DNA of 64,000 nt from an uncultured Acidobacteriota bacterium (GTDB taxonomy: Bacteria > Acidobacteriota > Vicinamibacteria > Vicinamibacterales > UBA2999), in assembly GCA_963846425.1 (NCBI GenBank), contig CAWJVW010000007.1, forward strand, positions 13,759 to 77,758, given 5' to 3'. Below the pieces are notes generated by a model. It made no database searches and had not been told where the DNA came from. It saw only the letters and a program-made list of their open reading frames with translations. Positions 57,774 to 64,000 of the stretch are shown in pieces. A program made the position numbers and the translations under genes. Within the stretch, counting starts at the first letter, position 1. Every line of letters starts with the position of its first letter.

Positions 57774-60700
57774 ATGCGATCGAGGTTCGCCCTCATCTTC
57801 GCCGCCTCCGGCGCGGCAGCCCTCATCTACGAAGTCACCTGGACGCGTCTGCTCACGCTGCAGCTTGGGCATGGCGTGGCTGCCGCGAGCACGGTGCTCG
57901 CGGCCTTCATGGGTGGGCTCGCGGCGGGTTCGGCTGTCGGCGGCAGTCGAGGGTCCACTCTTGATCCGGCTCGCGCACTGCGCGTGTATGCCGGTCTCGA
58001 GATCGGCATAGCCGTTCTCGCGCTGGCCATGCCCTATGCAATACGCGCCCTCGATCCTCTACTGGCGTGGGCCTATGCCGATGGGGCCGGCGGTGCGCGC
58101 TTCGGCGCGCTGCGGCTGATGGCGAGCCTGGTGCTTTTGTCGGTGCCCGCCGCAGCCATGGGTGCCACGTTCCCCATCGCGTCGAGATGGTTCGTCCAGC
58201 ATGTGGGCCGGGCTGCCCGGGATGCCGGCACGCTCTACGCAAGCAACACCATTGGCGCGGCGCTTGGCGCGCTCGTCGCGGGTTTCGTGCTCCTGCCCTT
58301 CCTTGGCCTGAGTGGCGCGACGTGGATCGGCGTTGCGCTGAATATGGTCGCGGCCGCAGGCGCGTGGCAGATCGCAAAATCTCCTACGAGGGGTCACGTC
58401 CCGAGTCCTACGAGAGCGCAGAGCGCCGGAGTCCCACGAGCGAAGCGAGCTCACCAATCGGCCGAAGGTCGCGCGGCCCTCAGAGCGCGGCCGGCCCTGG
58501 CCGCGGCCGCGCTGGGAGTTTCCGGCTTTGCATCGCTCACCTTGCAAGTCGTCTGGACGCGACTGCTCGCGCTCATCCTCGGACCGACCACCTACGCGTT
58601 CAGCACCATGGTCGCCGTGTTCATCGCGGGTCTTGCCATTGGGGCCGCCGTCGCGTCGCGTTTCGTCGCGCGGAGCCGCGATCCGCTGCTGGGGCTCGCG
58701 ACCTGCCTGGCATTGGCAGTGGGATTCGGCGCTGTCGCGGCAGGCCTCGTCGACCGCGGGCTGCTCGCAATCGCGGAGGTCGTCGCAAAGCCAGACGTCA
58801 CGTTCACCGAGGTCATCGCTCGCCAGGCACTGCTGGCCATTGGTCTGCTTTCGCCGATGACGATCGCGTTTGGCGCCGCCTTTCCGTTTGCAGTTGCGGT
58901 CGGCGCGCGCACGGACCACACGATTGCCTCTGATCTCGGGTTGATCTATGCCGTGAACACGACGGGTGCGATCGCCGGCGCGTTGCTCGCGGGGTTTGTG
59001 TTCATCCCCTGGCTCGGCTTACACGGGACGATTCGCCTGGTGACAATCGCCGGAGCCATCGGTGCGCTGGGCCTCGTCGCCGCAAGCCGCCGCGGCCGCT
59101 GGCTTGCTGGCGCCGCAGTGGCTGTCGTCGTTCTGGCGACAGGCATCCTCCTTCCTGACTGGGACAAGCTGCTGCTGTCGAGTGGCGCGTATAAGTACGC
59201 GTCGGTCATGCAGGCACCCGATCTGGAGACCGCTCTCAAGGCCGGCGAATTGCTGTATTACGGCGAAGGGCCCAGCGGCACGGTTACCGTTCGACGAGTG
59301 GGCGGTACGACATCGCTCGCGATTGACGGTAAGGTCGACGCCTCCAACGCGGGCGACATGCTCACGCAGCGTCTGCTCGCGCACGTCCCCCTGCTGCTGC
59401 ACCCTGATCCCAAACAGGTCGCCATCCTCGGGCTTGGCAGCGGCGTTACATTGGGCTCAGCCTTGCGACACCCGATCGAGCGCGCGGATGTCCTCGAGAT
59501 CTCACCGCAGGTCGTGGACGCGGCACGCTATTTCGATCAGGAGAATCATCGCGCCACACTCGACCCGCGCACACGCGTGATCCTCGGTGACGGACGCACG
59601 CATCTCCTTCTGACGCGGCAGCGCTACGACGTGATCGTGTCAGAGCCGTCGAACCCGTGGATGGCCGGCATCGCGTCGCTGTTCACGCGGGAGTTTTTCG
59701 AGGCCGCGCGCAGCCGGCTGGCGCCCGGCGGCGTGCTGTGTCAGTGGGCGCATACCTACGACATCAGCACGCGCGATCTGCAGTCGATTGTCGCGACGTT
59801 CGCGTCCGTCTTCCCGGATGGCACGCTGTGGCTCGTTGGCGATGGTGACGTTCTGCTGGTCGGATCCAACCAGCCGCTCGAGTCGCGACTGGCAGGGTTG
59901 GCCAGCGCCTGGCAGCGTCCCGGCGTGGCTGAGGACCTGGCCACGGTCGGCGCCCTGGAGCCCTTCCACGTCCTCTCGATGTTTGTCGCGCAGGGGCCGC
60001 GGCTGAGCGAATGGGCCTCTGGCGCGCCAGTCCAGGCTGATAACCGGGTTGCGCTGGAGTTCTCAGGTCCGCAAAGCGTGTTCGGACGGGAATCGGCTGA
60101 CAATGCCGCACTGCTGCGCACGCTGGCAGGTGGCCCGGCAGCCCGCCCGCCCCCGGTGGCCCAGGCGGAAGCCAGCGCAACGCCAGCCGCGTTCAGAGAT
60201 CGGGGTTGGATGTTGCTCAATGCCGATTCGGTCCGACCGGCGTATGACGATTTCGTGACCGCCGTCGGGGCGAATCCGCACGACGCGCGCGCGCTGGAGG
60301 GGCTGATCCGCGCTTCCGCGCCGCTTCGACGTGGGTCGCAGACACGGGCGCTCCTTGAACGTTTTGCGGCCGATCCGACCCATCAGGCCGCCAAGCTCGC
60401 GCTCGCCCGCCAGCTCGCGTCCGAGGGATCATTCGACGAGGCCGCCAGGATTGTCTTTGGCATTCTCCAAACCGACCCGGGCAACGTGCCGGCACTCGAG
60501 GGCATGGCGTCAGTGCTGTCCGATGCCGGCGATCTCGAACGGATGAAGCCGGTGGTTGCCCGGCTTCGGGCGGAAGCGCCCTCGAGCGAGGCTGCGCACT
60601 ATTACAGCGCCGCTCTGCTCTTCATGGAGGACCGGACGGACCTGGCACTGATGGAAGCGCGTCGGGTGATTGCAGTGAACCCGTCTCACTCGAAAGCCCA

Positions 60701-60935
60701 CAATCTGATGGGGGCCTGTCTGGCGAATCTCGGTCAACGGGACGAGGCACGTGCCGCGTTTCAGGCCTCGATTGCGGCGGACCCCCGCGACCCGGCGACT
60801 TATTCCAACCTCGCCACGCTCGAACTCCAGGCGGGCAATCGCGATCGGGCGGCGCGCTACTTTGCCGAAGCCCTCACAATCGATCCGTCATCGGAAACCG
60901 CCCGGCGCGGGATTGCCGACCTTCAAGTTCGTTAG
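57774..60935 (+). CDS. Fused membrane (MFS-like)/spermidine-synthase-like protein with C-terminal TPRs
   Basis: SGAAALIYEV, GATFP, LYASNTIG, IDGKVDAS, LGLGSGVT, LEI, DGR, YDVIVSEPSNPW, TPR tail. Confidence 0.87.
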   Translation: MRSRFALIFAASGAAALIYEVTWTRLLTLQLGHGVAAASTVLAAFMGGLAAGSAVGGSRGSTLDPARALRVYAGLEIGIAVLALAMPYAIRALDPLLAWAYADGAGGARFGALRLMASLVLLSVPAAAMGATFPIASRWFVQHVGRAARDAGTLYASNTIGAALGALVAGFVLLPFLGLSGATWIGVALNMVAAAGAWQIAKSPTRGHVPSPTRAQSAGVPRAKRAHQSAEGRAALRARPALAAAALGVSGFASLTLQVVWTRLLALILGPTTYAFSTMVAVFIAGLAIGAAVASRFVARSRDPLLGLATCLALAVGFGAVAAGLVDRGLLAIAEVVAKPDVTFTEVIARQALLAIGLLSPMTIAFGAAFPFAVAVGARTDHTIASDLGLIYAVNTTGAIAGALLAGFVFIPWLGLHGTIRLVTIAGAIGALGLVAASRRGRWLAGAAVAVVVLATGILLPDWDKLLLSSGAYKYASVMQAPDLETALKAGELLYYGEGPSGTVTVRRVGGTTSLAIDGKVDASNAGDMLTQRLLAHVPLLLHPDPKQVAILGLGSGVTLGSALRHPIERADVLEISPQVVDAARYFDQENHRATLDPRTRVILGDGRTHLLLTRQRYDVIVSEPSNPWMAGIASLFTREFFEAARSRLAPGGVLCQWAHTYDISTRDLQSIVATFASVFPDGTLWLVGDGDVLLVGSNQPLESRLAGLASAWQRPGVAEDLATVGALEPFHVLSMFVAQGPRLSEWASGAPVQADNRVALEFSGPQSVFGRESADNAALLRTLAGGPAARPPPVAQAEASATPAAFRDRGWMLLNADSVRPAYDDFVTAVGANPHDARALEGLIRASAPLRRGSQTRALLERFAADPTHQAAKLALARQLASEGSFDEAARIVFGILQTDPGNVPALEGMASVLSDAGDLERMKPVVARLRAEAPSSEAAHYYSAALLFMEDRTDLALMEARRVIAVNPSHSKAHNLMGACLANLGQRDEARAAFQASIAADPRDPATYSNLATLELQAGNRDRAARYFAEALTIDPSSETARRGIADLQVR

Positions 60936-61436: not shown

Positions 61437-62294
61437 TTGCGTCTTTCCAAACCCTACGCTCTCTTTGGTAGAGGGTCACGCGCGCACCGCTTCTACCTCG
61501 GAGATTCTGTCGACGTCCTCCGGAGGTTCCCCGCCGCTGTCGCCGATGTCGTTGTCACGTCACCGCCCTATAACCTCGGGGTGCGGTATCGCACCTATGA
61601 CGACCAACGGCCTCGCGAGGAATACCTGAGATGGACCGGCCAGTGGATTGCGGCAGTCGCTCGTGCGCTGTCGCGCCAAGGCTCATTGTTTTTGAACGTC
61701 GGGTCCAAACCAACGGATCCGTGGACGGCACTTGACGTTGCGCAGGCGGCGCGACCCCACCTGCAGCTCCAGAACATCATTCACTGGATCAAGTCCATTG
61801 CCATCGAGCGGGACGCGGCGGGGGCTCGGGCGGGGCTCGCCGCCGACCTGGCCGTTGGTCACTACAAGCCAATCAACTCGGATCGCTTTCTCCATGATTG
61901 TCAGGAGTTTGTGTTTCATTTTTCTCCGGACGGGCACACGGCACTCGATCGTCTGGGGCTGGGCGTCAAGTACCAAGACTCCTCGAATCTAACCAGATGG
62001 GAAGCAGCCCGGCAGGGTCTGCGCTGCCGAGGCAATGCGTGGTTCATTCCTTACGAAACGATCCAAAGCCGCGACCGGGATCGCCCGCATCCGGCCACGT
62101 TTCCGCCAAAACTCCCCGAATACTGCATTCGCCTGCACGGCGTGACCCGGACACGCATCGTCCTGGATCCGTTCCTGGGCCTGGGCAGTACGGCCGTCGC
62201 AGCGGCCCGCCTGCGTGTGGGATTCATCGGGATCGAACTCGACGAGCATTATTTGAAAGAGGCTATCGCACGAACACGCACTGAGCTCGCGTGA
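61437..62294 (+). CDS. Orphan beta-class N4-cytosine/N6-adenine DNA methyltransferase
   Basis: TSPPY (motif IV) before HPATFP and DPFLGLGST (motif I), GIELD. Confidence 0.88.
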   Translation: MRLSKPYALFGRGSRAHRFYLGDSVDVLRRFPAAVADVVVTSPPYNLGVRYRTYDDQRPREEYLRWTGQWIAAVARALSRQGSLFLNVGSKPTDPWTALDVAQAARPHLQLQNIIHWIKSIAIERDAAGARAGLAADLAVGHYKPINSDRFLHDCQEFVFHFSPDGHTALDRLGLGVKYQDSSNLTRWEAARQGLRCRGNAWFIPYETIQSRDRDRPHPATFPPKLPEYCIRLHGVTRTRIVLDPFLGLGSTAVAAARLRVGFIGIELDEHYLKEAIARTRTELA

Positions 62295-62367
62295 TCAACG
62301 GCTCGCCTGACAGCCTCCGGTCCCCGTGGGCTTCCCTGCAGCGAGCGAAGCGAGTATCCTTCACGGC

Positions 62368-62973
62368 ATGAAGCGCGCGTTGATAGCACTGGGTGTGCTT
62401 GCGATCGGCCTGATGGCTGCGGTTCCAGTCGCCGCAGCGGGTCAGGGCGGCGCAGCCCCCGCGGCGCAGGCTCCGCCACCTCCACCCCCGCCGGCGGTGA
62501 AGATCGGCGAGCCGATGCCGGACTTTTCGTTGAACTATCTCGAGCCCGCTGCCGATGGTGGACGCCCCCAGTCGAAGACCGCCAAGCTCTCCGACTTCAA
62601 GGGCAAGCAGGTGGTCGTGCTCGCTTTCTTCCCGGCCGCGTTCTCGCCGGGTTGAACGACTGAGATGTCCCGGTACCGGGACAACTATGCGCAGTTCAAC
62701 GCCAACAACGCCGCCGTCTTCGGCGTGAGCGTGGACTCGACCTGGGCCAATCTCGCATTCCGCGAGCAGATGAAGCTGGACTTCCCGCTCCTCAGCGACT
62801 CCAAGAAGGACTACTCGCGGCAGCTTGGCATCCTCGACGAGAACTCCGGCTTCGCCCGCCGCTTTACCTTCGTCGTGGACGACCAGGGGATCCTTCGCCA
62901 CATTGACTCGGCCCAGGCCGCCTTGGATCCAGCGGGCGCCGTAGGGGCCTGCTCGCTACTCAAGAAGAAATAA
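62368..62973 (+). CDS. Exported peroxiredoxin (AhpC/TSA; AhpE/BCP-like), probable selenoprotein with in-frame UGA at codon 96
   Basis: Signal peptide; FFPAAFSPG-TGA-TTEM continues in frame into GVSVD...FPLLSD...RFTFVVD; UGA sits at the peroxidatic-Cys position. Confidence 0.85.
62666..62683 (+). promoter_or_regulatory. Putative bacterial SECIS element
   Basis: TGTCCCG-GTAC-CGGGACA perfect hairpin starting 10 nt after UGA (62653-55), G-U at start of apical loop. Confidence 0.65.
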
Positions 62974-63003
62974 AGGACGGCCGCGAAAATACGAAGACAC
63001 GAC

Positions 63004-63028
63004 GGGGACAGGGTTTGAACCTGTCCCC
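63004..63028. repeat. GGGGACAG palindromic REP-like element
   Basis: GGGGACAGG-GTTTGAA-CCTGTCCCC; near copy of 37597-37620. Confidence 0.7.
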
Positions 63029-63135
63029 GGAATCGTGTTACTCGTGGGCGATCTTTCTATTACTTTTCGAGCTGTCAGGCCTTGAAATCATCTCTCTCCG
63101 AGATATAAGCTTGGGCTCTTTTCGCGAGAGCCTGC

Positions 63136-64000
63136 TTGGACCTTCGACAACTCGAAATCATTCGCGCCATTGCCGAGACCGGCTCGTTTACGGCGGCTGG
63201 CAACAAGCTGCACGTGTCGCAATCCGCGATCAGCCGACAGATCCTGCTGCTGGAGGACGAGCTGAAGGAACCGGTCTTCTTACGGGTCGGGCGGCGCATT
63301 CGCATCACGCCGGCCGGAGATGCCCTGCTGCAGCTGTCGCATCGGATGTTTCAGGATCTCAAGGACACGCTGGCCGGGATTACCGACAGCCAGGAATCCT
63401 TGCGCGGTCAGATCCGGCTGTTGGGCGGGATGACCGTGTGCCTCTACGTGTTCCCGGCCCTCCTCACCGAGTTGAAACGGCAACACCCAGACATCGATCT
63501 CAAGCTCGTCGCCGGCAGCTCTGAGCGATGCCTGGCGCATCTCAGGGCCGGCACCGGGGATCTCGCTCTGCTGACCCTGCCGGTCGATCAGCCGGACCTG
63601 GTCACGGTGCCCGTGATGCAGGAGGAACTCCTGCTCGTCACCAGCGCCAAGCATCCCCTCTCGCGGAAACGGAAGATCTTTCCGCAGGATCTCGTGCGCC
63701 AACCATTCGTCCTGTTCGAGACCGGCTCGAACTCTCGGCGCGTGGCAGACGAGTTTTTTACGACCTCGCGCATCGAGCCTCAGATTGTGATGGAGACCGA
63801 GAACGTCGAGATCATCAAGGCCATGGTCCGCAACGGCATCGGCATCACGATCATTCCGTTTCAGGCCGTCGCCCGGGACGTGTCGAGCGGTCAGCTCTTC
63901 TGTGCCCGGATCGAAGGGCGGTCTCTCGTACGTGAAACGGGCTGGGTCTACCCGAAGATGAGCCGAACGCCGCGGACCGTGCAGGAGGTCATTCGCGCGT
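63136..64000 (+). CDS. LysR family transcriptional regulator (runs off window end; missing from ORF track)
   Basis: TTG start, LDLRQLEIIRAIAETGSFTAAGNKLHVSQSAISRQILLLEDEL HTH, open to 64000. Confidence 0.92.
   Translation, partial: MDLRQLEIIRAIAETGSFTAAGNKLHVSQSAISRQILLLEDELKEPVFLRVGRRIRITPAGDALLQLSHRMFQDLKDTLAGITDSQESLRGQIRLLGGMTVCLYVFPALLTELKRQHPDIDLKLVAGSSERCLAHLRAGTGDLALLTLPVDQPDLVTVPVMQEELLLVTSAKHPLSRKRKIFPQDLVRQPFVLFETGSNSRRVADEFFTTSRIEPQIVMETENVEIIKAMVRNGIGITIIPFQAVARDVSSGQLFCARIEGRSLVRETGWVYPKMSRTPRTVQEVIRA

Follow-up and report, generated by a model that had tools for sequence, protein, structure and literature searches.

In this work, we analyzed a 64,000-nucleotide stretch of DNA (the window) from an uncultured Acidobacteriota bacterium of the order Vicinamibacterales (assembly GCA_963846425.1, contig CAWJVW010000007.1), and we describe a locus at positions 62368-62973 of its plus strand. 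This locus very probably constitutes one gene, encoding an exported BCP/PrxQ-like peroxiredoxin (Prx) of soil Vicinamibacterales that contains selenocysteine (Sec, U). In the proposed catalytic cycle, the Sec residue U96 would cooperate with the only cysteine of the protein, C195, and the gene probably possesses its own promoter.

Two open reading frames (ORFs), 62326-62655 and 62665-62973, are located on the plus strand in a single frame and are separated only by the TGA codon at 62653-62655 and three sense codons. Translation through the TGA as Sec gives the sequence ...VVVLAFFPAAFSPG-U-TTEMSRYRD..., where the TGA occupies the position of the Cys in the peroxiredoxin motif P-x3-S/T-x2-C (FFPAAFSPG-U-TTE). 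The start that is kept among orthologues is the ATG at 62368, and the resulting product has 201 residues with U96 and the single Cys C195. The match to the Pfam family AhpC-TSA (PF00578) spans the TGA and covers the full model (positions 1-124 of 124, E-value 3.2e-35, 121.2 bits against a cut-off of 26), which argues for one gene, since two chance ORFs would not give such a match. A previous reading of this DNA, made from the letters alone (the sequence-only reading), had proposed two ORFs in the same frame split by a TGA at the catalytic position of a peroxiredoxin motif, and both the translation and the domain match bear this out. The signal-like N-terminus, the poly-Pro linker, and the single Cys named there were also recovered, and the first two of these are kept across the family. 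The elements of the gene are as follows.

62368-62973, plus strand: the complete predicted selenoprotein gene, with 201 codons including the UGA-Sec codon 96, followed by a TAA stop.
62368-62439, plus strand: N-terminal signal-like segment by hydropathy, residues 1-24 (MKR, a hydrophobic core, and AAA).
62440-62493, plus strand: Gly/Ala/Pro-rich linker in the translation, residues 25-42, ending in PPPPPPP, with a PPP run in the family.
62653-62655, plus strand: UGA predicted to be read as Sec (U96), the peroxidatic residue, from the conserved TGA in Sec-form genomes.
62666-62683, plus strand: apical hairpin of a putative bacterial Sec insertion sequence (bSECIS), a 7-bp stem with a GUAC loop, from folding, covariation, and published constraints.
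62694-62698, plus strand: GUUCA, which can pair with UGAAC (62653-57) as an outer helix around the hairpin in the minimum free energy (MFE) structure.
62860-62862, plus strand: codon of R165, the conserved peroxiredoxin active-site Arg, invariant in 128 of 128 family members.
62950-62952, plus strand: codon of C195, the sole Cys of the protein and candidate resolving residue, invariant in 128 of 128 members.

The TGA codon is conserved well beyond a single assembly. A search of 41 related genomes gave 12 matches at E<=1e-70, each with one TGA; they originate from 10 of the 12 genomes of the genus (the host included) and from 2 of the 16 genomes of other families in the order, and the 13 other genera of the family in this sample gave no match at that threshold. 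In the order-level sample of 301 genomes, 24 have an orthologue at E<=1e-45, 15 of them with the TGA and nine without it. In total, every one of the 22 Sec-form genomes inspected (12/12 and 10/10 loci), which represent several families, has its TGA at the catalytic codon. The four fetched loci of Cys-form orthologues all have TGC at this site, and Cys is found at the peroxidatic position in all 119 aligned full-length database homologues. The search for homologues with either Cys or TGA at codon 96, suggested in the sequence-only reading, therefore returned both, and the uniform TGC/TGT among close homologues that it had named as grounds for rejection was not observed. A quick tree with 141 rows was built for the Sec and Cys forms; the Sec locus L111, which has no PPP run, was left out of it. 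The Sec forms cluster, with 4 label changes needed where shuffled labels need 17.2 on average. Support is good for a clade that comprises 115 Cys forms, and a small number of Cys forms are located among the Sec forms. A single origin is compatible with this tree, and we make no claim about the direction of the Cys/Sec change.

The genome of the host encodes a complete Sec machinery. In this assembly, which is 100% complete and comprises 7 contigs, a tRNA-Sec was detected with 65.9 bits, above the Rfam cut-off, and is called SeC(tca) by ARAGORN, while selA (534 bits), selB (346 bits), and selD (359 bits) each score above the curated cut-off. All four components selA, selB, selC, and selD, the absence of which the sequence-only reading had listed as refuting, are accordingly present. 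The selD gene (G000:C5:1474646-1475566, locus L020) is likewise interrupted by an in-frame TGA, within the motif ...VSCAG-U-ASK..., by which SelD itself is predicted to contain Sec. TGA is not reassigned in this genome and otherwise acts as the main stop codon: of 37 long open frames in the window that do not overlap, 20 end with it, among them the methyltransferase gene directly upstream. Three other thioredoxin-fold genes of the same genome, L046 (G000:C5:1810753-1811154), L047 (G000:C5:2577141-2577512), and L048 (G000:C3:200560-201006), also have one in-frame TGA at a redox motif; example motifs among such genes are WFPKAFTGG-U-TAEC, kept also in the genomes G001, G006, and G012, and FRSADW-U-PYC. 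The genome thus seems to be rich in redox selenoproteins.

The hairpin downstream of the TGA has the sequence UGUCCCG-GUAC-CGGGACA (62666-62683), and 10 nt separate its first paired base from the UGA. A 60-nt fold has an MFE of -18 kcal/mol and a z-score of -2.29, and 5 of 200 shuffled sequences fold as well; folding in this way confirms the perfect GUAC-loop hairpin that had been noticed in the sequence 10 nt past the TGA. In 20 distinct Sec forms, 92.5% of the cells are paired, compared with 23.6-45.4% after a shift of the 3' partners by 1-3 columns. In the apical stem, 16 of these forms have C-G at the pair 24-33 and four have U-A, and both changes are synonymous (TCC to TCT and CGG to CGA); the covariation score is reached by none of 500 shuffles. 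The covariation evidence for the hairpin is real but thin. The contrast between Sec and Cys forms is the stronger argument: in 50-nt folds, the four Cys forms reach -4.1 to -11.7 kcal/mol and lack the hairpin, whereas the nine Sec forms reach -13.1 to -20.7 kcal/mol, and the peptide encoded by the stem region is K/Q/A-Q/K-Y-Q in Cys forms versus S-R/Q-Y/F-R in Sec forms. From these differences in both fold and residues, the peptide S-R-Y-R-D would appear to be imposed on the protein by the SECIS stem. The outer helix formed by GUUCA and UGAAC is paired in 96% of the cells in the 20 sequences, shows no double-sided change, and is weaker in this respect than the apical stem.

Of the 20 Sec forms, 17 have a GUAC, GUAU, or GUUC loop, and the remaining three have AGUAUC. 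The SECIS of Escherichia coli fdhF contains a bulged U; the hairpin described here, unlike it, has none. The Rfam scan of positions 62300-63100 at E<=10 gave weak, chance-level matches only, and no bacterial SECIS family was matched. Within the genome, GU loops occur in the downstream hairpins of two thioredoxin-fold paralogues, L046 and L048, and the selD hairpin has a CCA loop instead of a GU loop, so that an organism-specific SECIS consensus is not derivable from this comparison. The bSECISearch model of the bacterial SECIS specifies a loop of 3-9 nt and an upper stem of 4-16 bp, a G in the first two loop positions (mostly G[G/U]), a UGA-to-loop distance of 16-37 nt, and an MFE of -7.5 kcal/mol or lower (PMC13188914). 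Our hairpin agrees with the four constraints as published there, having a 4-nt loop on a 7-bp stem, G and U as the first loop nucleotides, a UGA-to-loop spacing of 17 nt, and -18 kcal/mol. The three orthologues with AGUAUC differ from this model in that they have no closing pair, and consequently have a 6-nt loop with the G at position 2. The bSECIS comparison, which the sequence-only reading had recommended, is in favor of the element: agreement with the published constraints, conservation with compensation in Sec forms, and absence from Cys forms.

The family alignment included 128 members, nine Sec forms and 119 full-length database homologues; identity to the latter is 53-66% among those fetched. 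All 128 members have P89, C/U96, T97, E99, R165, and C195, 127 have S93, and each has exactly two positions with Cys or Sec in its mature part. A resolving Cys at position +5 is common, though not universal, in the BCP/PrxQ subfamily; in this family the +5 residue after the peroxidatic position is K, Q, S, T, E, or A in 128 of 128 members and never Cys. An AF2 model has a mean pLDDT of 87.6 (49-56 over residues 1-30) and places C195 in the last predicted helix, residues 189-199. Foldseek searches retrieved Prx1 and Bcp structures, ranked equal, at E-values of 8e-15 to 3e-14 and TM-scores of 0.62-0.88, and the best PDB sequence matches were Sulfolobus Bcp proteins (2.6e-23). The closest solved structures, Bcp1/Bcp4 (PDB 3drn, 3hjp, 2ywn) and the typical 2-Cys Prx1 (2z9s), share the same active-site residues. 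The aligned Bcp/Prx1 chains differ from our family, which has S/K/Q/T/E/A five residues past the peroxidatic position, in having C or S there; they are neither exported nor Sec-containing, and the C-terminal motif of our protein, G-A-C-S-L-L-K-K-K, is different from the C-terminal resolving motif of Prx1. No NCBIfam model scored above its cut-off, so the protein receives no equivalog name: the BCP model NF006960 gave 68 bits against 140, and identity with the PrxU equivalog NF040737 is ruled out by a score of 64.1 bits against 270. From these comparisons, we read the protein as belonging to a distinct, presumably exported BCP/PrxQ-like subfamily of the 2-Cys type with a C-terminal Cys as the putative second redox residue, in which some Vicinamibacterales lineages appear to use Sec in place of the peroxidatic Cys.

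The N-terminus, MKRALIALGVLAIGLMAAVPVAAA, consists of K/R followed by a hydrophobic stretch with 12-residue Kyte-Doolittle means of up to 2.76 and then by AQAPPPPPPP. An N-terminal hydrophobic segment with K/R is found in 125 of the 128 members, the three exceptions looking like mis-called starts, and the PPP run is found in all 128. One DsbD_TM homologue (130 bits) is encoded in the genome, at G000:C2:409423-410046. In the proposed mechanism, SelB with Sec-tRNA(Sec) would bind the hairpin at 62666-83, 3' of the UGA at 62653-55, and insert Sec at position 96; the N-terminal segment would target the protein to the cell envelope by way of the Sec translocon, with the poly-Pro run as a spacer. 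Sec96 is predicted to lie at the N-terminus of helix alpha2 and to form a canonical Prx active site with P89, S93, and R165. As expected from established Prx chemistry, the U96 selenolate would reduce the peroxide and become a selenenic acid, which C195 would resolve to a selenenylsulfide. Regeneration of the enzyme might then be carried out by an envelope thioredoxin-like protein fed by a DsbD-family transporter, in the manner of the PprX-TlpA-ScsB system of Caulobacter.

PprX of Caulobacter crescentus is described as an exported BCP/PrxQ peroxiredoxin that carries a signal sequence at its N-terminus and has its resolving Cys in a non-canonical place; its reductant in the envelope is the thioredoxin-like protein TlpA, which receives electrons from ScsB, a member of the DsbD family (PMC3322552). 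Our protein may resemble PprX, as described there, in its PrxQ-like domain, its putative N-terminal signal segment, and its candidate resolving Cys outside the usual position, with a DsbD_TM protein present in the genome; PprX uses Cys where our protein has Sec. The T/SxxU Prx is a listed family of bacterial selenoproteins, with 12 selenoproteins and 5 Cys-to-Sec events in one survey (PMC1794560), and it is also tabulated as a selenoprotein family in another source (PMC13188914). Like the members of this family, including PrxU of Eubacterium acidaminophilum, our protein has a UGA-encoded Sec at the place of the peroxidatic Cys, and Cys homologues exist; it differs in its signal-like N-terminus, its poly-Pro linker, and its C-terminal Cys. 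The hosts also differ, being soil metagenome-assembled genomes (MAGs) of Vicinamibacterales here and mostly anaerobic Deltaproteobacteria and Clostridia in the available parts of the published accounts. Sec-peroxiredoxins and exported PrxQ proteins are therefore both already published, and the mechanism is not new. In the limited literature covered, with supplementary tables outside the search, no description of an exported Sec-peroxiredoxin or of a Vicinamibacter case was found. We consider the chances to be roughly even that this protein is the first recognised selenoperoxidase of the bacterial cell envelope, exported by the Sec translocon, working through a U96-C195 selenenylsulfide cycle, and recharged by a DsbD-type system.

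The surroundings of the gene contain the following elements.

62355-62360, plus strand: TATCCT, read directly, a -10-like hexamer ending 7 nt before the ATG and a candidate promoter element of a leaderless transcript.
63004-63028, plus strand: inverted repeat GGGGACAGG-N7-CCTGTCCCC, read directly, 31 nt past the stop, a possible terminator without a U-tract.
63136-64000, plus strand: conserved neighbouring gene for a LysR-family regulator (300 aa), running past the window end.
61437-62294, plus strand: DNA methyltransferase gene directly upstream, with weak matches to adenine-specific methyltransferase models, none above cut-off.

A TANNNT box is located 6-7 nt before the start codon aligned with M1 in all nine close orthologues with an in-frame start, at position -13 in eight and -12 in one, in flanks that have otherwise diverged; the background rate is 0.0022 per position. 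No Shine-Dalgarno sequence is visible in these nine orthologues. The Prx gene probably has its own promoter, the -10 box of which, 7 nt before the ATG, would lead to a leaderless mRNA, and leaderless expression is plausible for this genus. In the 100 nt before the Prx start of several orthologues (L026, L027, L054), runs of short repeats of the types CCCTGAT, CACCTGA, and GCCCTGT precede the -10-like box; such repeats were not seen in the upstream region of the Prx gene of the window. The methyltransferase gene is adjacent to the Prx gene in 12 of 24 loci, even in the distant orthologues of genomes G036 and G037, and the LysR gene adjoins it in 22 of the 24 loci (several of which duplicate the same genomes); the short flanks of L034 and L036 do not contain it. 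In two loci, L054 and L060, these neighbours are retained but the Prx gene between them has the opposite orientation, so that the LysR gene is divergently transcribed from it; this argues that the Prx gene has its own promoter. The LysR neighbour had no NCBIfam model above cut-off and can be named only as LysR-family: OxyR (99.6 bits, cut-off 329) and the "selenium metabolism-associated LysR" (164.9 bits, cut-off 250) were both rejected. The inverted repeat at 63004-63028 was not called in a terminator scan, the two terminator-like sites of which lie away from the gene end. Elsewhere in the window, the plus-strand ORF 57774-60935 (1053 aa) has many N-terminal hydrophobic segments and, by eye, TPR-like repeats in its C-terminal part.

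Two alternatives dispense with Sec altogether. The TGA might be a nonsense mutation or a sequencing error in a gene for a Cys-peroxiredoxin, the locus being a pseudogene; some MAG copies are indeed frameshifted (L028, L032, L035), and Cys forms of the same subfamily exist. We regard this as extremely improbable in view of the recurrence of the TGA in every Sec-form genome inspected across several families, the protein-level conservation of the downstream half with its invariant R165 and C195, the hairpin specific to TGA forms with its compensatory change, and the full Sec machinery of the genome. The locus might also give two products, an exported N-terminal fragment of 95 residues ending at the UGA and a 102-residue protein starting at the ATG at 62665. 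That ATG lies three codons past the TGA, and gene callers do give proteins of 102-104 aa (the best 120 of 331 clusters), yet the break would fall at the catalytic residue within one thioredoxin-fold domain and leave neither half with a full active site, P89 and S93 belonging to one and R165 to the other. Moreover, the Cys forms are single chains, and the Met in question is the conserved M100 of a T-x-E-M motif that is present in Cys forms too. Separate products are thus highly unlikely.

Two further alternatives accept the Sec-peroxiredoxin and concern its mechanism and location. C195 might not be the resolving residue, the selenenic acid being reduced by an external thiol or a thioredoxin-like partner (a 1-Sec mechanism) and C195 serving in a role such as a mixed disulfide with the reductant, a dimer cross-link, or regulation. 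1-Cys members are known in the BCP/PrxQ group, and the model puts C195 in the last helix. The review in its available text gives no partner Cys for the TxxU Prx family. The conservation pattern speaks for resolution by C195, which is the only other Cys in each of the 128 members, all of which lack the +5 Cys, and it would be uncommon for an exported protein to keep a single Cys without a use; we judge the 1-Sec mechanism unlikely. A somewhat better case, still doubtful, can be made for the N-terminal segment as an uncleaved membrane anchor, with the poly-Pro run tethering the enzyme to the outer face of the cytoplasmic membrane rather than releasing it as a soluble periplasmic protein. The rigid spacer directly after the hydrophobic segment in all 128 members would suit a tether, and envelope thioredoxin-fold proteins of the TlpA/ResA type are membrane-anchored in this way. 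Against an anchor, most orthologues have small residues of the A-x-A type after the core (VAAA-G, VTA-G, VAAA-Q), which are typical of signal peptidase I sites.

The reading of the locus as a gene for an exported Sec-peroxiredoxin with its own promoter also has points against it. Sec incorporation, export, the Se-S bond to C195, and the 5' end of the transcript are all inferred, and export in particular is suggested by hydropathy, the K/R n-region, and conservation. Only one pair of the hairpin shows a double-sided change, a number not above that of shuffles (321/500); since the stem lies over conserved codons, its conservation could in part reflect protein constraint, and the CCA loop of selD means that a GU loop is not universal in this genome. 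Three MAG copies, L028 (genome G005), L032 (G004), and L035 (G010), are frameshifted, with the signal peptide in another frame or the C-terminal part shifted. These frameshifts may be due to assembly indels or to decay; of the two, assemblies prone to indels are the more likely cause, and in L035 the match to the adjacent LysR gene is likewise broken into three pieces. For the promoter, a consensus sigma-70 scan gave no promoter-like sites, and L034 and L036, the most distant among the orthologues whose start is clear, have AGAGG 6-8 nt upstream and no -10 box there. With a Shine-Dalgarno sequence in these two loci, leaderless expression is not a feature of the family; the leaderless mRNA proposed in the sequence-only reading gains comparative support for the genus, from TANNNT in nine of nine close orthologues, and fails as a general property.

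The Sec form has a particular fate in databases. A search with the C-terminal half gave 331 clusters at E<=1e-25, and the best 120 of these 331 are all 102-104 aa long and are named "peroxiredoxin" or "redoxin domain-containing protein"; all seven short records that were fetched begin with MSRYRDNY. One full-length database protein (P0002; 200 aa, 89% identical) has W at the Sec site (FSPG-W-TTEMSRYRD), likely because the gene caller used a TGA=Trp code on that contig. The Sec form is, by these records, apparently common in (soil) metagenomes and systematically split, being stored mostly as 102-aa fragments. As a result of this truncated storage, surveys of selenoproteomes and counts of Prx in Acidobacteriota are probably too low.

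If the proposed function is correct, the protein would be an envelope peroxide scavenger for soil Acidobacteria. Sec may make a peroxiredoxin harder to over-oxidise, and if export holds, selenium chemistry would join the short list of envelope peroxide defences. The Sec and Cys orthologues within one order (15 versus 9 of 24 genomes) would allow naturally matched enzymes to be compared for the benefit that a peroxiredoxin gains from Sec. Together with the matching presence or absence of the hairpin, they offer a natural system for studying both the Cys/Sec exchange and the constraint that an in-frame SECIS places on protein sequence, in which the peptide S-R/Q-Y/F-R-D, apparently dictated by the SECIS, tells the Sec forms from the Cys forms.

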